64,000 nt of DNA from an uncultured Planctomycetales bacterium (GCA_964595465.1 CAZQQI010000005.1:9562-73561); one strand, 5' to 3'. Shown: positions 14,024 to 48,111, counted from the first letter of the stretch. Notes: generated from the letters alone by a model not told the origin. Made by a program: numbers and translations.

Positions 14024-14202
14024 TGTGTTGACAATGTATCGATCATATTGTTTTTTTCGGAGCGTTCGTTCTGCCCCGGCGAGGCAGAACCTCACTCAAC
14101 GAAAATCCTTCGCTCTCATCACCCTGATGCGTGATGATCCATGCCCGCTGCGGATTTTCGAAGTCCTCTAAAATACAATATGATCTCTCATAATTGTCAA
14201 CA
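14024..14202. repeat. 179-bp structured intergenic element bounded by ~28-bp imperfect inverted repeats (GTGTTGACAAT..GATCATATTGT), enclosing nested hairpins
   Basis: Arm 1 is at 14024-14050 and arm 2 at 14174-14202 as its reverse complement, with an ~80% match. Inside are hairpin GTTCTGCC/GGCAGAAC (14066-14089), stem CGAAAATCC/GGATTTTCG (14098-14159) and CATCAC/GTGATG. The element could be a MITE-like element or a structured RNA. Confidence 0.4.
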
Positions 14203-15524: not shown

Positions 15525-16098
15525 GCATATTCCCAATATTCTGACCGGAGCAAGGATCCTGATGGCCGCGGTGTTTCTGCTGCTGTTCCGGGATTTTATT
15601 GTGTGGGCGTTCGCGGTCTTTCTGCTGGCGTCTGTGACGGATTATTGGGACGGATATCTGGCCCGCCGGTTTCAGCTGGTCAGTAATTTTGGTAAGATCA
15701 TGGATCCCATCGCCGACAAAATGCTGATCTTTGCCGCGTTCGGCTGGCTGGCTGCGATCGGGCTGGCGGCCTGGTGGATCTTTTGGGTTATTGTTGTCCG
15801 TGAGACGGCTGTGACTGTGTTCCGTTTCTGGGCAAAGTCCAGAGGAAGGGTAGTGGCCGCGGCTTCCGCCGGAAAGATCAAGACGGTCCTGCAGATCATG
15901 ACCGTGATCGTGATGATGCTGTTTCTGATCGTGTCCGAGTATAACGGATGGCAATATATCGGCGGGGCTCCGGCCGCGGACGCGGGGTATGCGATTATTC
16001 AGGTTTTGTTGATCTTGACCGTACTCCTTACGGTCTATTCCGGGCTGGATGTGTTTTGGACAAACCGTGCATTATGGAAAGGACATTCTCATGGATAA
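15517..16098 (+). CDS. pgsA: CDP-diacylglycerol--glycerol-3-phosphate 3-phosphatidyltransferase
   Basis: The CDP-alcohol phosphotransferase motif D.WDG.LAR......G...DP.ADK is present. The gene overlaps rimO by 8 nt. Confidence 0.85.
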   Translation: MNKHIPNILTGARILMAAVFLLLFRDFIVWAFAVFLLASVTDYWDGYLARRFQLVSNFGKIMDPIADKMLIFAAFGWLAAIGLAAWWIFWVIVVRETAVTVFRFWAKSRGRVVAAASAGKIKTVLQIMTVIVMMLFLIVSEYNGWQYIGGAPAADAGYAIIQVLLILTVLLTVYSGLDVFWTNRALWKGHSHG

Positions 16099-16540
16099 AC
16101 GCTGGGCAGAACGCTGGGCAACTTTTTTTCATATCGGAAATTTTCCTGTCGGGCCGGGCACCGCGGCGAGTTTTGTCGGGGCCCTGCTGGCGGTCGCGCT
16201 TTCCGGCGCGCCGGTGCTATATGTGCTGACTTTTTTCATTGTGGTGTGGATGGGCTACCGTTCCAGCGGTGTGATGGAAGAGATCACTGGAGAAAAAGAT
16301 CCGGGCCGTGTGGTGATCGATGAGGTCGCCGGGATCATGATCGCATTTTTCCTTCTGCCTGTCAGCTGGCCGGTTTTCTGGACCGCGTTTTTCCTGTTTC
16401 GCGCCTTTGATATGTTCAAGATCTATCCCGGCAAAGTCTTTGAGCTGAAAGGCGGCGCGCACGGGATCATGATGGACGATATTATTGCGGGGATTTATAC
16501 CAATGTGATCATGCATATTGTCTTGTGGATGGTGGGATAA
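16091..16540 (+). CDS. pgpA: Phosphatidylglycerophosphatase A
   Basis: PgpA family features are present (GPGTAASFVGAL..., a small polytopic membrane protein). The gene overlaps pgsA by 8 nt and the start was moved to ATG 16091. Confidence 0.75.
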   Translation: MDKRWAERWATFFHIGNFPVGPGTAASFVGALLAVALSGAPVLYVLTFFIVVWMGYRSSGVMEEITGEKDPGRVVIDEVAGIMIAFFLLPVSWPVFWTAFFLFRAFDMFKIYPGKVFELKGGAHGIMMDDIIAGIYTNVIMHIVLWMVG

Positions 16541-17333: not shown

Positions 17334-17349
17334 CGTTTTTATGATCGAT

Positions 17350-17466
17350 CCAGAGGTGATGACAATTCGCATTGCTCATGCAGCCTCGCTGCGCAGTTTT
17401 TTCTAAATAATATTTCGGTAAACTGTTTTGCTTCGGAACGCGCTTGCTGAATGAACATCACTCTGG
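17350..17466 (+). repeat. Copy A of a ~110-nt repeated structured element (candidate sRNA or REP/ERIC-like intergenic repeat)
   Basis: About 80% identical over ~105 nt to 25871-25981 in the same orientation. The conserved core is ACAATTCGCA.TGCTCA...CCTCGCTGCGCAG...TTTGCTTCGGAAC.GCGCTTGCTGAATG. The terminal stem CCAGAG(G)TGATG / CATCACTCTGG differs from copy B but stays complementary. Confidence 0.6.
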
Positions 17467-17503
17467 ATCCCTGTCATTGCGGCCTGTTATTCAGGCCGCT
17501 TTT

Positions 17504-18085
17504 TTATGGCTGGGTGAGTTCAGCAGAGGAAAGGGGGCTGTAGACCGCCCCATCGGCCGTGAGGGTGCTCTGATAAAAGACGACATATTTGACCGGCACC
17601 GTCAGCGGGGGGAGGGAAATGTCGTTGAGAACTGCTCGAACAGAGACGGACTCGGACGGTGTTTTGCAACGGCCCAGGGTCAGATGCGGGGCGAAGGGGC
17701 GCCGCTCTTTAGGGATACCGCCGCGGGCCAGTCCGTTATTCAGGGTGTTAAAGAGTTCATTCAGCGGATCTGATGACTGCGAGCTTCCCACCCAGAGGAC
17801 GCGGGCGTTGTCCGGTGACGGGAAAGCACCCAGCTTGTCAAAGGTTAGAGAAAGGGCGGGGAGGCCTTTCAGAATAACGGGGAGGTCCCGGCGGATTTGT
17901 TTGACACGCTTGGCTGAGCGGTCGCCGAGAAAACGCAGTGTCAGATGGATCGTGCCGGGTTTGACCGGACGGAAAAGGACGCCGCGCGAAAAAAGGGTCT
18001 GCTGAAATTCAGCAAGCGCTGTTTGAACGTCAGCGGGAAGAGGGACGGCGATAAAACAGCGGATCGTGTGATGACGGGTGCTCAT
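17504..18085 (-). CDS. thpR: RNA 2',3'-cyclic phosphodiesterase (2H phosphoesterase, LigT/ThpR)
   Basis: Two H-x-T-x motifs (IHLTLRFLG and PHLTLGR) are present in a 193-aa protein. Confidence 0.8.
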   Translation of the reverse strand: MSTRHHTIRCFIAVPLPADVQTALAEFQQTLFSRGVLFRPVKPGTIHLTLRFLGDRSAKRVKQIRRDLPVILKGLPALSLTFDKLGAFPSPDNARVLWVGSSQSSDPLNELFNTLNNGLARGGIPKERRPFAPHLTLGRCKTPSESVSVRAVLNDISLPPLTVPVKYVVFYQSTLTADGAVYSPLSSAELTQP

Positions 18086-18703: not shown

Positions 18704-18711
18704 AATGAACA

Positions 18712-18860
18712 ATACTTTCGGGATCGGGTGCAATTCCCGGCTGGTAGTGACCCGGGGTCCATAAGATCCAGGGAAGCCTGCGAGCCTCTCCGGTATACGG
18801 CGGGGCTGATCAAGTGAAAATCTTGAGCCAATAGTGAGAGCCTAGATGGGAGAAAGTAGC
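18712..18860 (+). promoter_or_regulatory. FMN riboswitch (RFN element) aptamer
   Basis: The region matches the RFN consensus: CTTTCGGGATCGGGTGCAATTCCCGGCTGGTAGTGACCCGGGG...AGCC...GATGGGAGAAAG aligns with the B. subtilis/E. coli TTCGGGGCAGGGTGAAATTCCCGACCGGCGGTAGTAAAGC...GATGGGAGAAG. It lies upstream of ribBA. Confidence 0.9.
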
Positions 18861-18913
18861 CGACAAAATGTTTAACCGTGTCCGCGCTGTGGCGGACCGG
18901 GTCTGGCTAGAGT

Positions 18914-23805: not shown

Positions 23806-25041
23806 ATGAATAAGCGCATCGCTATCACAGGGTTAGGGGTCCTCGCCGGCAACGGCAAGGGCCGGGAAGAGTTTTGGCAAAGCCTGAAAGACGGGCGGCC
23901 GGGCTACCGTCCCATTACCTTGTTCGAAACCGACGAATTCAACGTCAATATCGCCGGAGAGATCCCGGAATTCGATGCCAAGGAATACATGGGCAAGAAG
24001 GGTCTGCGGACTCTGGACCGCAGTACCCGCATTCTGGTTTCAGCCAGTAAGCTGGCCATGGCCGAAAGCGGATACGGGATCACCGAAGAGAATACGGAAA
24101 TGACCGGCGTTTCGGTCGGCACCACCCTGGGCAGCCTCAAGAGCATTGCCGAATTCGACGAGATCACCCTGCGTGAAGGCCCGCGCTATGTTAACCCGTC
24201 TCATTTTCCTAATACCGTGATCAATTCTCCGGCCAGCCAGGTATCAATCTGGAATGATATCAAAGGTTTCTGCAATACCCTGGCCAGCGGGTTTACCACC
24301 AGCATTGACGCCATGCAGTACGCCGCGGATTTCATCGAATGGGACCGCGCCGAAATGGTCCTGGCCGGCGGGGTTGAGGAGCTCTGTCTGCAGACCTTTT
24401 ACGGGTTTCATGCCCTGCAGTTTATCTCCGGCTCTATAAATGGGGACGAGTTTATCAATTGCCCGTTCGACCGCCGGCGCAACGGCGTCACCTTCGGCGA
24501 AGGCGCCATGCTGATGGTCATGGAGGATTTTCAAAACGCGCGGGACCGCGGTGCCGACATCATGGCCGAGGTCGGCGGGTTCGGTTATGAATTCGACCCT
24601 TACCGTCTGCATAAATACAACCCCAAAGGCACCGGGATGAAGAACGCCATGCGCAAGGCCCTGGACGCAGCCGGGCTGACCATTGCAGACATTGACTGCA
24701 TTTTTGCTAACGCCAATTCCGCGCAAAACGCAGACCGCATTGAGGCGGCCGCGATTAAAGAGGTGTTCGGCGCTCAGGCAAAAAACGTTCCGGTGACAGC
24801 TACCAAATCTATGACCGGCGAATGCTACAGTGTCTCCGGGGCGTTGGCCGTGGCAGCGGCCCTGGGTGCGGTCCGGGAGGGGTTTATCCCTCCGACGATC
24901 AATTATCAGGAGCCGGACCCGGACTGCGATCTGAATATTATCGCCGACACAGTCAGTGATGCGGATTTAAAGAATGTTTTGATCAACAATTTTTCCCCCA
25001 GCGGGGCGAATGCCTGCATGGTCCTGCGGGCGGTTTCATAA
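23806..25041 (+). CDS. Beta-ketoacyl-ACP synthase (FabF/FabB) homologue with all three catalytic residues substituted; likely non-catalytic
   Basis: 411 aa, collinear with E. coli FabF over its full length. An ungapped alignment of the active-site segment places Phe where the nucleophilic Cys163 sits (KGFCNTLASGFTTS vs RGPSISIATACTSG). HGTST becomes ANANSA (His303 to Asn) and KSMTGH becomes KSMTGE (His340 to Glu). Lys335 is retained. Confidence 0.75.
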   Translation: MNKRIAITGLGVLAGNGKGREEFWQSLKDGRPGYRPITLFETDEFNVNIAGEIPEFDAKEYMGKKGLRTLDRSTRILVSASKLAMAESGYGITEENTEMTGVSVGTTLGSLKSIAEFDEITLREGPRYVNPSHFPNTVINSPASQVSIWNDIKGFCNTLASGFTTSIDAMQYAADFIEWDRAEMVLAGGVEELCLQTFYGFHALQFISGSINGDEFINCPFDRRRNGVTFGEGAMLMVMEDFQNARDRGADIMAEVGGFGYEFDPYRLHKYNPKGTGMKNAMRKALDAAGLTIADIDCIFANANSAQNADRIEAAAIKEVFGAQAKNVPVTATKSMTGECYSVSGALAVAAALGAVREGFIPPTINYQEPDPDCDLNIIADTVSDADLKNVLINNFSPSGANACMVLRAVS

Positions 25042-25839: not shown

Positions 25840-25870
25840 ATGAATAGTCAATCGAAAGATTTTTTTTATG

Positions 25871-25981
25871 AAGGGAGAACAATTCGCAATGCTCAGACAA
25901 CCTCGCTGCGCAGCTTATCTTAATAAACGATTTTTGTAACCTGCTTTGCTTCGGAACTGCGCTTGCTGAATGGTTCTCCTC
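25871..25981 (+). repeat. Copy B of the ~110-nt repeated structured element, in the fabG-fabZ2 intergenic region
   Basis: See copy A. The terminal stem GGGAGAAC / GTTCTCC replaces the GTGATG / CATCAC of copy A, a compensatory change. A conserved mini-ORF ML.QPRCA.. runs across the core. The ORF-track extension 25963-26022 of fabZ2 overlaps this element and is probably an artefact. Confidence 0.6.
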
Positions 25982-26022
25982 TCATTTCAACTTTAAACGA
26001 ATATTTATCCGTGAATGATCCG

Positions 26023-26472: not shown

Positions 26473-27749
26473 CAGCGCAAGACCACTGCAGATCGTCTGC
26501 TCAGAACAGAGCCGCGGACTATGACGTTATTGTTGTCGGCGCCGGCGCGGCCGGTATGATGGCTGCCATCCGCGCCGCGCAGATCGGCGCGCGGGTTCTT
26601 TTGCTGGAAAAAGGCCCTCGTCTTGGGCGCAAGGTCCGCATCACGGGTAAGGGCCGCTGTAATGTCACCAATGCCTGCGCGCGTGAAGAATTCATTAAAC
26701 GTTTTTTTCACAACGGAGATTTTCTGCGCGACGCGTTCAAGGCCTTTTCCAACCGGGACCTCATGCATTTTTTCGAGCAGCAGGGGGTGGCGCTGAAGGT
26801 CGAACGTCAGCAGAGGGTGTTCCCTCAAAGCGGACGCGCCGCCGATGTGGCTGCGGCATTGGAGACTGCGCTGGCAAAAAACAGCGTCGAGGTGCGTACC
26901 AACATAGCGGTCCGTGATGTTCTGGTTGACGGCAGAGTGCGGGGTGTGGTCCTGGACGGAGGAGAACATATCTTTGCGTCCGCTGTGATGATCGCGACAG
27001 GTGGACTGAGTTATCCGGAAACCGGTTCCACGGGAGACGGCTTGCTCATGGCCCGCAAGAGCGGTCACCGTATAACTCCTACCGGACCGGCCTTAACGTC
27101 ATTAGAGACCCGGCAGAAATATGTTAAGGAGTGGGAAGGGCTGACGCTCAAAAATATTCGTCTGATATTTGTTCACGGGCGTAAGCGGCAGGAGAGCGGA
27201 ATGGGCGAGCTGCTCTTTACCGCCCGCGGGGTTTCCGGTCCGTTGGTGGTCAGCGCCAGCGGCCAGGCCGGAGAGTGGCTGGAGCGCGGGCAAGCGGTCA
27301 GGCTCGAGATAGATCTTAAGCCCGCCCTGAGCGCTGATGATCTGGACGCACGCGTCCTGCGCGACATTGACGCCGCACCCCGACAGCGCATGAAAAATTT
27401 CTGCAGAGGGCTTCTGCCGCAGCGTATGATCGCGCGGTTCTTAAAGGAAGCCGGCGTTGATACGGACCTGCCGGCCAATCAGCTGACCGCTCATCAGCGC
27501 AGGAATGTCATTTGTAAGCTGAAAGGTTTGAGTTTCGATATAAAAAGTGTCGCTCCGCTGAAAACCGCCATGGTCACCCGCGGAGGAATAAGCGTGAGGG
27601 ATGTTGATCCCCGGACTATGCAGTCGCGCCGCGTCCCGGGGCTTTATTTCGCCGGCGAGGTTCTGGATGTGGACGGCGACACCGGCGGGTTTAACCTGCA
27701 GGCCGCGTTCTCGACCGGATTCCTGGCCGGACAATCCGCCGTGGGATAA
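26469..27749 (+). CDS. HI0933-family FAD-dependent oxidoreductase (flavoprotein)
   Basis: The N-terminal dinucleotide-binding motif DVIVVGAGAAGMMAAIRAAQIGARVLLLEKG is present. The protein is 426 aa, consistent with the HI0933/YhiN-like family, and overlaps the fabZ2 stop by 4 nt. Confidence 0.7.
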   Translation: MTAQDHCRSSAQNRAADYDVIVVGAGAAGMMAAIRAAQIGARVLLLEKGPRLGRKVRITGKGRCNVTNACAREEFIKRFFHNGDFLRDAFKAFSNRDLMHFFEQQGVALKVERQQRVFPQSGRAADVAAALETALAKNSVEVRTNIAVRDVLVDGRVRGVVLDGGEHIFASAVMIATGGLSYPETGSTGDGLLMARKSGHRITPTGPALTSLETRQKYVKEWEGLTLKNIRLIFVHGRKRQESGMGELLFTARGVSGPLVVSASGQAGEWLERGQAVRLEIDLKPALSADDLDARVLRDIDAAPRQRMKNFCRGLLPQRMIARFLKEAGVDTDLPANQLTAHQRRNVICKLKGLSFDIKSVAPLKTAMVTRGGISVRDVDPRTMQSRRVPGLYFAGEVLDVDGDTGGFNLQAAFSTGFLAGQSAVG

Positions 27750-27815
27750 AGGTGACGGGCACTTTTATTTTATCCCTCATCTCTAATTCTGAAAATAAAA
27801 GTGTCCGTCACCTTT
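27748..27815. terminator. Very long hairpin (24-bp stem with one G-U pair, 21-nt loop) overlapping the flavoprotein stop codon; a terminator candidate, possibly bidirectional
   Basis: AAAGGTGACGGGCACTTTTATTTT (27748-27771) pairs with AAAATAAAAGTGTCCGTCACCTTT (27792-27815), and TTTATATT follows. Confidence 0.6.
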
Positions 27816-27837
27816 ATATTACTAAAGAAAGGTCCCT

Positions 27838-33218: not shown

Positions 33219-33223
33219 ATAAC

Positions 33224-33319
33224 CCGGCTGCCGGTTTTCCTGTTTCCGCAAGGATACAGGTCTGGCCAAACAGGAAATCTCCCTTTGTTTCCTGTTCAAG
33301 CCGGCAGCCGGTTTGTTTT
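33224..33319 (+). terminator. Attenuator-like structure: outer stem CCGGCTGCCGG/CCGGCAGCCGG plus T tract, enclosing the mutually exclusive pairings TTCCTGTTT : AAACAGGAA : TTTCCTGTT
   Basis: The inverted and direct repeats are read directly. The 3' arm is followed by TTTGTTTT. A second 10-bp hairpin GGGGCAGCGG/CCGCTGCCCC (33327-33356) abuts the tRNA promoter -35. Confidence 0.4.
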
Positions 33320-33357
33320 ATCTCATGGGGCAGCGGTTTTTTTCGGCCGCTGCCCCA

Positions 33358-33386
33358 TTGACGTTACATGCCTTCAATGCTACAAT
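33358..33386 (+). promoter_or_regulatory. tRNA-Pro promoter TTGACG-17-TACAAT
   Basis: TTGACG at 33358-33363, a 17-bp spacer and TACAAT at 33381-33386 are read directly, about 38 nt upstream of the tRNA 5' end. Confidence 0.6.
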
Positions 33387-33424: not shown

Positions 33425-33502
33425 CGGGAAGTAGCGCAGCTCGGCTAGCGCGCAACGTTCGGGACGTTGAGGTCGAGGGTTCAAATCCCTCCTTCCCGAC
33501 CA
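33425..33502 (+). tRNA. tRNA-Pro (anticodon CGG), CCA encoded
   Basis: The cloverleaf was folded by hand: acceptor CGGGAAG/CTTCCCG, D stem GCGC, anticodon stem CAACG/CGTTG with loop TTCGGGA (anticodon CGG, G37), T stem GAGGG/CCCTC with TTCAAAT, and discriminator A followed by CCA. C1:G72 plus A73 is typical of bacterial tRNA-Pro. Confidence 0.9.
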
Positions 33503-46373: not shown

Positions 46374-47843
46374 ATGCCGCAGCTGAAGACAATTTGCCCG
46401 GAAGATATTGCTGTCCCGCCTGGACTCGCCGGACATGAAATCCGCAATGTGAGGACCGATTCGCGCCGGGTGGAAGACGGAGATTTGTTGATGTGCCCGG
46501 AGACTAGCCGTGAAAACGCTGCGCAGTATGTGCGCGATGCTTTCCATAATGGGGCGGCCGTTGTTGTCTGTGAAGAAGGGGTGTTTCCGGCAGATGCCTG
46601 TCCGCAAAAGGTCCTCATGGTGCGGGGAATTGCGGCCCGTGTGCCGGAATTTCTGTCCCGTGCCTATCCCCTCGCTCGCAAGATCAAGCTGACCGGTATA
46701 ACCGGCACCAACGGTAAGACCACGATCACCTATTTGCTGGAAAGCATTTGGTCCGCATGCGGGTTTCATCCCGGCGTGATCGGGACCGTTGCCTACCGAT
46801 ACGGAGATCAGATTCTTCCGGCAAAAAATACTACCCCGGGTATCGCGGATAACTATTGTCTACTCGCCGCTATGGCCCGGGCGGGGGTGACCCATTGCGC
46901 GATGGAAGTCTCTTCGCATGCTTTGGATCAGGGACGCGTGCGCGGTCTGAATTTCGACCATGCCGTCTTTACCAATTTGACCCGGGATCATTTGGATTAT
47001 CATGCCGGCCAGGAGGCGTATTTTGCGGCCAAAGCGCGTTTATTTAATGGGGAGGCAGAGATCGGACGCGCGGTGATCAATGTCGATGATGCGTCTGCCG
47101 GGCGTCTGATCGAATTGACGTCTGCGCAAGTCACGCGTTACGGCATTGACGGTCCCGCGGATATTGCGGCGCATGATCTGTGTCTGGACGCTGAAGGTCT
47201 CAGGTTTACACTGGCTGTGGGGAAGGAAAAAATTTTATTATCATCTGCCCTGGCCGGACGTCATAATGTGTATAATATTCTTGCGGCCGCGGCCGTGTGC
47301 TGTCATCAGGGAATTGATCTGAAAGATATTGCCCGGGGCATTGCCGCCCGGAAAATTATCCCTGGACGGCTGGAGAGGGTGGGACATCGTCCTGACCAGC
47401 CCGCGGTCTTTGTGGATTACGCGCATACAGATGATGCCCTGCGGAATGTTCTGCGCAGCCTCAAAGCCCTGCAGCCGGGACGTCTGATCGTGGTTTTTGG
47501 CTGCGGCGGAGACCGCGATCGGGGAAAACGTTCGCGCATGGCGCGGGCCGCCGAACAGTATGCCCAGGATGTTATTGTGACTAATGATAATCCCCGCAGT
47601 GAGGACCCCGATCAGATCCTGGCTGATATTGAGTCCGGTTTTCAGCAAAAGCAGTATGTCATGATCAAGGACCGGGGGGAAGCGATCGGCCGGGCCATTG
47701 ACCAGGCCGGACCCCGTGATATTGTTCTCATTGCCGGAAAAGGTCATGAAGATTATCAGACCTTTGCCGACCGGACGATTCATTTTGATGACCGTGAGGT
47801 CGCCGCGGAATGCTTAAACCGGAAAAGAAAACAGGCTCTATGA
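46374..47843 (+). CDS. murE: UDP-N-acetylmuramoyl-L-alanyl-D-glutamate--2,6-diaminopimelate ligase
   Basis: The Mur ligase P-loop GITGTNGKTT is present and the gene sits between ftsI and murF. The DNPR motif (DNPRSEDP) is consistent with meso-DAP specificity. Confidence 0.9.
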   Translation: MPQLKTICPEDIAVPPGLAGHEIRNVRTDSRRVEDGDLLMCPETSRENAAQYVRDAFHNGAAVVVCEEGVFPADACPQKVLMVRGIAARVPEFLSRAYPLARKIKLTGITGTNGKTTITYLLESIWSACGFHPGVIGTVAYRYGDQILPAKNTTPGIADNYCLLAAMARAGVTHCAMEVSSHALDQGRVRGLNFDHAVFTNLTRDHLDYHAGQEAYFAAKARLFNGEAEIGRAVINVDDASAGRLIELTSAQVTRYGIDGPADIAAHDLCLDAEGLRFTLAVGKEKILLSSALAGRHNVYNILAAAAVCCHQGIDLKDIARGIAARKIIPGRLERVGHRPDQPAVFVDYAHTDDALRNVLRSLKALQPGRLIVVFGCGGDRDRGKRSRMARAAEQYAQDVIVTNDNPRSEDPDQILADIESGFQQKQYVMIKDRGEAIGRAIDQAGPRDIVLIAGKGHEDYQTFADRTIHFDDREVAAECLNRKRKQAL

Positions 47844-48111
47844 ACGTTTTCGTGGGTAAAGCAAAGGATAATGTGATATTTTGTATTTAATCGTTTCTGC
47901 TGGAATGGCGGTAAAAAAGATTGGGAGGGACGCGCAGAGCGAGTTCCGAACCGAACGATTTATGATAAAAACGTTCGGGGAGGCTGTTTGAGCGAACGCG
48001 TCCTTTCCAATCTTCATGAGCCATTCGGCTGCAAAATGGTACATAAAAGCAATATCGTATGCGTCATACCCATTGATTTTTTCAAAGAGCCGGAAAACAT
48101 AAGGGATCGTT

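Follow-up and report, generated by a model that had tools for sequence, protein, structure and literature searches.

The 64,000-nucleotide stretch of DNA analysed here (the window) matches contig JBKHBP010000006.1 (91.7 kb) of assembly GCA_046542295.1, a Candidatus Omnitrophota MAG, an assignment made through an exact protein match and the NCBI name of its MurE protein. Together with 6.5 kb of upstream sequence (L009) and 9.6 kb of downstream sequence (L011) it makes up the ~80 kb that were searched (window-equivalent positions -6478 to +73555), and comparison was also made with five Logan contigs of SRR11308339, which come from this organism and match the MAG contig at 99.97-100% identity. 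Four related hairpin elements, which we call copies A to D, lie in this region, all of them between genes (Table 1). Copy A is in the 3' UTR of a Bax1-I/YccA-like gene, 17 nt past its stop codon and upstream of the terminator of that gene, and copy B is 32 nt past the stop codon of an adh_short/KR (FabG-like) gene, in a 183-nt spacer before a FabZ/ApeI-like gene; both distances agree with the 15-35 nt downstream of a plus-strand stop codon, after the YccA-like gene and fabG, that the original prediction had given. Copy C sits between murE and murF. Copy D lies ~2 kb past the end of the window, ~100 nt 3' of a tRNA-Arg(TCG) gene and directly upstream of gcvT. Relative to the plus-strand genes around them, the cores of A and B face one way and those of C and D the other.

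Table 1. Positions of the repeat copies and associated features, in window coordinates except for copy D.
Feature	Position	Strand	Basis
Copy A, whole hairpin with its copy-specific outer stem GATCCAGAGGTGATG / CATCACTCTGGATC	17347..17469	+	sequence, folds, gene context
Copy A core, the stretch homologous to B, ACAATTCGCA ... TGCTGAATG, with both loop motifs inside	17362..17453	+	alignment, BLAST, profile
Intrinsic-terminator-like hairpin and T-run (GCGGCCTG TTATT CAGGCCGC TTTTTT), belonging to the host gene and not to the repeat	17479..17507	+	3' of copy A
Copy B, whole hairpin with outer stem TGAAGGGAGAAC / GTTCTCCTCTCA	25868..25984	+	sequence, folds, gene context
Copy B core, the stretch homologous to A	25879..25972	+	alignment, BLAST, profile
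Probable target-site duplication of C, left, GAAAACA	47827..47833		flank comparison
Copy C, long form, 258-bp rod-like palindrome with terminal inverted repeats GGCTCTATGAA / TTCAAAGAGCC	47834..48091	-	alignment with D, fold
Copy C central hairpin, family core, GCTCAAACAGCCTC and TTCGGAACTCGCT on the minus strand	47917..48014	-	nhmmer, fold, motif match
Probable target-site duplication of C, right, GAAAACA, one base past the right terminal repeat	48093..48099		flank comparison
Copy D, 258 bp, outside the window	L011 12827-13084 (record positions 15904-16161)		profile search

The element had been described as occurring twice in the window (17350-17466 and 25871-25981), in the same orientation and with about 80% identity, and both copies were located: self-BLAST of the ~80 kb aligns 17362-17453 with 25879-25972 at 83.2% identity over 95 columns (E = 6.6e-18), with which a MAFFT alignment of the two is concordant. 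A pattern made from the 35-nt 5' block matches at the A and B sites only, where 0 matches were expected (100 shuffles), and the 3' block is identical at 27 of 27 positions. This homology stops sharply, at ACAATTC and at GAATG, and is near random a few bases past both ends; beyond these points each copy has a near-perfect inverted repeat of its own, the outer flank pairs amounting to 11-14 bp of near-perfect complement. The outer arms of A are CCAGAG-G-TGATG / CATCACTCTGG, extendable to GATCC.../...GGATC, and the inverted repeat that encloses the copy is GATCCAGAG-G-TGATG / CATCACTCTGGATC; those of B are GGGAGAAC / GTTCTCC. Only an imperfect inner repeat, CAATTCGCA.TGC / GC.TGCTGAATG, is common to both copies; the outermost arms differ, with no common terminal repeat past the core ends. 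These arms had been held to be completely different and yet self-complementary. The complementarity is borne out, whereas "completely different" is too strong, given that the 5' arms are both purine-rich and are alike at ~8 of 13 positions, a resemblance not distinguishable from compositional chance. As had been proposed, the whole unit folds in each case into one long bulged hairpin (RNA z = -2.7 and -3.4, DNA z = -3.9 and -2.6 for A and B, respectively). Copy A also holds an internal terminator-like mini-hairpin with a T-run, which is absent from B, C and D. No clear target duplication was found in either copy: B is without a flanking direct repeat of at least 5 nt, and the GATCC on both sides of A (17347-17351 and 17466-17470) is palindromic and so ambiguous as a target duplication.

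The earlier count of two holds for near-identical copies in the window, to which a third, diverged copy on the minus strand (47917-48014) and a fourth outside the window must be added. Copy C was first met as a weak minus-strand match (47939-47994, E = 0.084) in an nhmmer search with a profile of A and B; it is a 98-nt hairpin (z = -5.6 and -6.3) in which the two sequence motifs listed in Table 1 have the order and spacing seen in A and B. The window contains just three occurrences of the string GCTCANNCANCCTC, one each in A, B and C, and each has TTCGGAAC downstream of it in the corresponding position of the same strand. With a profile of A, B and C, the core of D was found at L011 12911-13011 (E = 4.4e-11), and C and D match each other in self-BLAST at E = 3.9e-27. 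A profile of all four copies returns each of them at E <= 1e-16 and nothing else at E < 1 in the 80 kb; a profile HMM was used rather than a covariance model, from which little would be gained with four sequences only. The density is thus 4 copies per ~80 kb, or ~1 per 20 kb, on the part of one contig that was counted, and further copies in the genome are inferred from contig breaks rather than counted. Two Logan contigs have their ends inside B, at 25914 and 25887, respectively, and breaks are also seen inside D and at a second repeat family (family E, 14030-14185), which is suggestive of k-mers common to further copies elsewhere in the sample; one further break (24684-24754) falls in repeat-free coding sequence, and the breaks are therefore suggestive evidence and not proof.

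The family core spans ~75-95 nt and is marked by a 5' motif, GCTCAnnCArCCTC, and a 3' motif, yTCGGAACn(n)CGCT, conserved in all four copies. The two motifs are not complementary to one another and form an internal loop, for which invariant GC/GC and CC/GG pairs may act as a clamp. A script was used to tabulate the helix pairs; MAFFT found no common columns for the 3' arms of the A/B and C/D subfamilies. The basal 7-bp helix, just outside the loop, is canonical in four of the four copies, with two-sided changes at five of its seven positions; it reads ATTCGCA / TGC(T)GAAT in A and B, GGACGCG / CGCGTCC in C and GGGCTCG / CGAGCCC in D. The apical helix, which ends in an AT-rich loop, pairs GCAG.. 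with ..CTGC in A and B, and CCGAACG with CGTTCGG in C and D. Such a pattern, in which the helices change on both sides and the loops are invariant, is that of a nucleic-acid structure. What is unusual is that conserved, non-complementary loop motifs are combined with stems that have turned over fully, and that the core is found by itself as well as in the middle of a larger MITE. The suggestion that pairing had been preserved through sequence change is therefore upheld for the helices next to the core, which change on both sides and stay paired; the differing outer arms, which had been offered as the hallmark of selection, are weak evidence by themselves, since the complementarity of the arms of A and B, if these are not homologous, may come from insertion or palindrome growth and is not necessarily the product of compensatory evolution. 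For C and D, the consensus fold has 64 pairs, with 5 compensatory changes and 13 changes between GU and GC or AU, and when the single-sequence fold of one copy is tested on the other, 13 of the 31 changed pairs stay paired. The centre of the C/D rod is well kept; its outer part is eroding and is not strictly maintained.

C and D are homologous over their full length, each being exactly 258 bp, and are bounded by 11-bp terminal inverted repeats (TIRs) of the form GGCTCTWTGAA, which in D read TGCTCTATGAA / TCCAAAGAACC. The ends of ISL3-family elements begin GGCTCTT. Copy C folds as a single rod (-98.5 kcal/mol, plus strand), and the fold of D is about as stable (-100.3 kcal/mol). The flanks of C, GAAAACA and GAAAACA, agree at 7 of 7 positions, the right copy being offset by 1 nt, and those of D, CATTTTC and CATTTTT, agree at 6 of 7; these flanks are A/T-rich and of low complexity, which raises the chance of a 7-bp direct repeat, and C has an alternative 8-bp direct repeat, CCGGAAAA, that is not adjacent to the ends of the element. 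Deletion of C with one GAAAACA yields a 491-aa MurE that ends ...KRKHKGSL, with a TGA overlapping the GTG of murF (GTGA), and the predicted empty murE-murF junction would read ...AAAAGAAAACATAAGGGATCGTTGTGACC... Coupling through such an overlap of the murE stop with the murF start is typical of dcw operons. As the sequence now stands, copy C fills the murE-murF spacer and supplies the stop codon of murE together with the three codons before it. We also note that, over window positions 47827-48111, the last five murE codons are replaced (HKGSL to QAL) and that murE and murF are now 268 nt apart.

The four elements measure 117-123 nt (A and B) and 258 bp (C and D), have no conserved ORF, and fold with z between -2.4 and -6.3; A and B are without the arms and the terminal repeats of the 258-bp element. 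No transposase, and no parent IS with matching ends, was found in the Pfam lists of the ~80 kb examined. Bacterial MITEs are defined by TIRs, flanking direct repeats, the lack of a transposase gene, a long RNA stem-loop and co-transcription at gene 3' ends (PMC3184786), and it is because the TIRs, the probable target-site duplications (TSDs), the absence of a transposase gene, the long stem-loop and the gene-end site of C and D fit these published features that we read them as a MITE. It had been asked whether the core might match the terminal repeat of a known IS or MITE; the core is indeed embedded, in C and D, in an element with MITE-type TIRs and probable TSDs, though this element is not one that had been described before.

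Searches for relatives of the family gave little. At the gathering score, Rfam models match only an FMN riboswitch and tRNA in the window, and lenient scans of A, B and C returned sub-threshold snoRNA, miRNA and sRNA noise, the best being MIR393 at 20.1 bits against a threshold of 60 bits, in accordance with the earlier view that the element belongs to no named RNA family. A tRNA-derived origin was also considered and rejected, there being no tRNA-model match on the elements in the lenient scans. Copy B has no blastn match in 5,426 complete E. coli genomes or in PLSDB plasmids, and a 265-nt stretch spanning C has one 30-nt chance match only in plasmid, E. coli and phage-type collections. The core pattern is found nowhere in IMG/VR viral contigs, and in JGI metagenomes its relaxed form has a single match (L013), which lies inside a 766-aa ORF, forms no hairpin and is chance-like. 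A pattern for the 3' block specific to A and B, GCTTCGGAACN{0,1}GCGCTTGCTG, has 5 matches among GTDB species representatives, in unrelated MAGs and with little resemblance beyond the pattern, which is too subfamily-specific for the purpose. In the literature searched, the terminal-repeat string occurs only in primers. Six-frame peptides of A, B and C, used as protein queries against 5.8 billion sequences, gave no match at E <= 10.

On balance, we regard A and B as probable members of a lineage-specific, non-coding and hairpin-forming family of dispersed repeats, palindromic, non-autonomous and comparable to MITEs and ERIC, so that the original comparison with the intergenic hairpin repeats of the REP, ERIC and Correia kind finds support in the four intergenic copies. 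Most likely the family, though new, belongs to a common type of element and is neither a novel RNA gene nor a mini-protein, and it looks restricted to its lineage, as MITEs usually are. The long form (C and D) carries the core at the centre of a 258-bp palindrome with 11-bp TIRs and probable 7-bp TSDs; TIRs with a duplication of ~7 bp are the signature of cut-and-paste or copy-in insertion, presumably by a DDE-type transposase acting in trans from outside this contig. A and B would be short forms that have copy-specific inverted repeats on either side of this core. The copies would be co-transcribed with the flanking plus-strand genes and carried as passive passengers, in the form of long mRNA hairpins that could incidentally affect processing or stability, by analogy with ERIC, Correia and bcr1 elements. 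The loop motifs are most simply taken as a DNA-level recognition site kept by the element and not as a host function. As the outer arms of A and B differ in a way that a TIR-reading transposase would not tolerate, the short form may spread or arise in a manner unlike that of C and D: its arms may be diverged homologous paired stems, or the core may have been inserted into palindromes, or the palindromes may have grown outwards by template switching, three options that two copies cannot separate.

The family can be compared with several known systems. ERIC, or IRU, sequences (~127 bp) are likewise imperfect palindromes of ~100-130 nt, non-coding, restricted to transcribed intergenic regions and 3' UTRs, present in either orientation, able to form a long bulged mRNA hairpin and known in longer variants, and they have been classed as MITEs (PMC3184786). 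There is, however, no sequence similarity to ERIC (none in 5,426 E. coli genomes) and the phylum differs, and where ERIC copies are flanked by TA, C and D have duplications of ~7 bp and A and B have copy-specific inverted flanks. Correia elements (CREE/NEMIS, MITEs of ~104-157 bp) are also small, TIR-bounded palindromes at or in gene ends that are co-transcribed and come in short and long forms, but every Correia copy has the conserved 26-bp TIRs and a TA duplication, whereas in the present family only the long form, C and D, conserves the outermost arms, those of A being different from those of B. In the work of De Gregorio and Mazzone, the RNA hairpin of Correia is reportedly a possible RNase III substrate. 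The bcr1 repeat of the Bacillus cereus group (~155 bp) shares a dispersed, transcribed and intergenic distribution, short flanking direct repeats and compensatory changes, which in bcr1 are base-pair changes that keep a double-stranded RNA structure (PMC3184786). It differs in that its sequence and host are unrelated and that its flanking repeat is a constant 5 bp, as opposed to ~7 bp and site-specific here.

REP and REPIN sequences are hairpin-forming intergenic repeats as well. REPs are GC-rich palindromes of 20-40 nt with a GTAG-like head, arranged as inverted doublets, and in REPINs, which are mobilised by RAYT, the arms are said to evolve concertedly so that pairing is preserved. The elements described here contain no GTAG-type head, and neither a RAYT gene nor a Y1 transposase appears in the Pfam lists of the contig parts examined; moreover, REPINs conserve complementary arms around a variable spacer, while our family conserves non-complementary loop motifs and varies the arms. 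Finally, integron attC sites are imperfect palindromes of 60-140 nt that are read by structure, with few conserved stem bases and with conserved unpaired features. When the ends of the elements (GATCCAGAGG / CTCTGGATC, TGAAGGGAGAAC / GTTCTCCTCTCA and AAGAT... / ...ATCTT) were tested against the attC boxes, however, no R''/R' boxes (RYYYAAC / GTTRRRY) were present, and there is no cassette array or IntI; the neighbours are housekeeping operons and the sole tyrosine recombinase on the contig is an Xer-like gene in a housekeeping context.

Other readings have to be weighed against this one. If the hairpin were a selected, cis-acting RNA structure, that is, an mRNA processing, stability or protein-binding site whose stems are kept by compensatory substitution and whose spread is secondary, then loop motifs that are conserved beside stems that vary yet pair would be expected, as would the position of four of the four copies in transcribed spacers or 3' UTRs of plus-strand operons. 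The sense strand of C also folds much better than its complement (-98.5 versus -80.2 kcal/mol over 275 nt, and -47 versus -38.7 over the core) and contains 9 G.T against 1 A.C transition mismatches. We nevertheless hold this reading to be unlikely. The transcripts would show GCUCA..CCUC and UCGGAAC in A and B but the complements of these motifs in C and D, so a single RNA-binding partner cannot read both, and the earlier idea of a discrete sRNA or strand-specific RNA finds no support, given the same occurrence of the core in both orientations relative to plus-strand genes. On the plus strand, A, B and D lack the asymmetry of G.T over A.C (3:2, 2:2 and 7:8, respectively), which is positive for C only and was dropped as evidence of RNA selection. 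The lack of an Rfam match, the lack of the core pattern in the viral and JGI metagenome collections apart from the one chance-like match, and the transposon-type ends of C and D likewise speak against it. A peptide encoded by the element is very improbable, even though an ATG mini-ORF covers the same motif in A (MQPRCAVFSK) and B (MLRQPRCAAYLNKRFL) and an AGGGAG lies 10 nt upstream in B: the two peptides are 10 and 16 aa long with unrelated C-terminal halves, neither C nor D has a start codon in the equivalent stretch, which translates as TASPN... and not as anything like QPRCA, the AGGGAG is simply half of the outer stem of B, and the six-frame search and the two-sided changes in the helices around invariant loops, a pattern of nucleic-acid structure, offer it nothing. 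The mini-ORF that had been called conserved is thus not a feature of the family. We give no more credence to chance similarity or a one-off local duplication without a wider family, which would suit the presence of only two near-identical copies in the window and the want of a convincing homologue in database searches, but which is opposed by the E value of the A-B alignment, by the occurrence of C and D on the same contig with the same motifs and architecture, and by the breaks of independent Logan contigs in B and D.

A different kind of mobility is conceivable, although we doubt it, in which mobility or expansion belongs to the ~92-nt core itself, which either inserts preferentially in hairpin loops or palindrome centres or, through intrastrand template switching at a quasipalindrome that makes an inverted copy of one flank, grows a palindrome into the host DNA. 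There is precedent for such insertion preference in IS1397 and ISKpn1, which insert preferentially in REP palindromes. This reading would explain at once the copy-specific, near-perfect arms of A and B and the central position of the core in the 258-bp rod of the C/D MITE; it is consistent with a homology between A and B that passes from 27/27 in the 3' block to near random at both ends, where flanks complementary over 11-14 bp begin, and with the extra copy-specific outer complementarity that is also seen in the otherwise unrelated family E on the same contig. Against it, there are two short copies only, the 5' arms of A and B, at ~8 of 13 positions alike, may be diverged homologous stems, the palindrome of B is continuous from flank to core with no visible junction, and no target duplication occurs at the core boundaries. 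Empty sites are of no help here: the closest MurE among 5.8 billion proteins is 52% identical and the closest S41 peptidase 62%, and with relatives only ~50-60% identical in protein, orthologous intergenic sites are not comparable as filled and empty. A more specific form of the idea, which we consider rather improbable, is that the core is a structure-recognised module at the palindrome apex, brought there by hairpin-loop insertion or by outward growth through template switching, so that it would lie within a host palindrome in A and B and in the exact middle of an independent 258-bp MITE in C and D. If true, it would define a class of bacterial repeats that targets hairpin apices or extends itself, with the loop motifs as the recognition site of an enzyme, and it is only if apex insertion or palindrome growth is correct that a new mechanism would be involved.

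In the more ordinary reading, that of a dispersed MITE- or ERIC-like family, the elements are still of some use. The literature that we searched describes no small dispersed repeat in the Omnitrophota, an uncultivated and poorly sampled phylum, and the family could serve as a strain-typing marker and in the diagnosis of assembly breaks in these MAGs. It also represents a test case for palindromic repeats that stay paired while their stems turn over, and it calls for caution in annotation, as the element has rewritten the last codons of murE and split the coupling of murE and murF.

Several other structured sequences lie nearby. Family E, at 14030-14185 in the window and at 941-1094 in L009, is palindromic and ~155-170 nt long, and its two copies are 80% identical. 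The ends, ATCATATTGT / ACAATATGAT, are TIR-like; the inner hairpin shows two-sided change (GTTCTGCC..GGCAGAAC versus GGTCAGCC..GGCTGACC) and Logan contigs break at it. It has GAGCG..TTC.G and GCGAGGC.G in common with the core of A-D and may be distant kin. Also in L009, at 566-930 (window-equivalent ~-5913 to -5537), a 163-nt tandem repeat of ~2.3 copies with 99% identity starts within a tRNA gene (L009 518-589), in its 3' end, which is thereby repeated as well. Within the window, an inverted repeat of 26 nt, with 96% complementarity around a loop of 20 nt, runs from the stop codon of a FAD-dependent oxidoreductase gene, upstream of a PilZ gene (27746-27817), and could be a strong terminator or another palindromic element. 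Two hairpins at 33221-33358 precede the tRNA gene at 33425-33499, one with the arms AACCCGGCTGCCGGTTT / AAGCCGGCAGCCGGTTT 60 nt apart and one with a perfect 12-bp stem (33325-33358). The FMN riboswitch (85.1 bits) occupies 18710-18861, ahead of a fused ribBA, which is followed by ribH and nusB.
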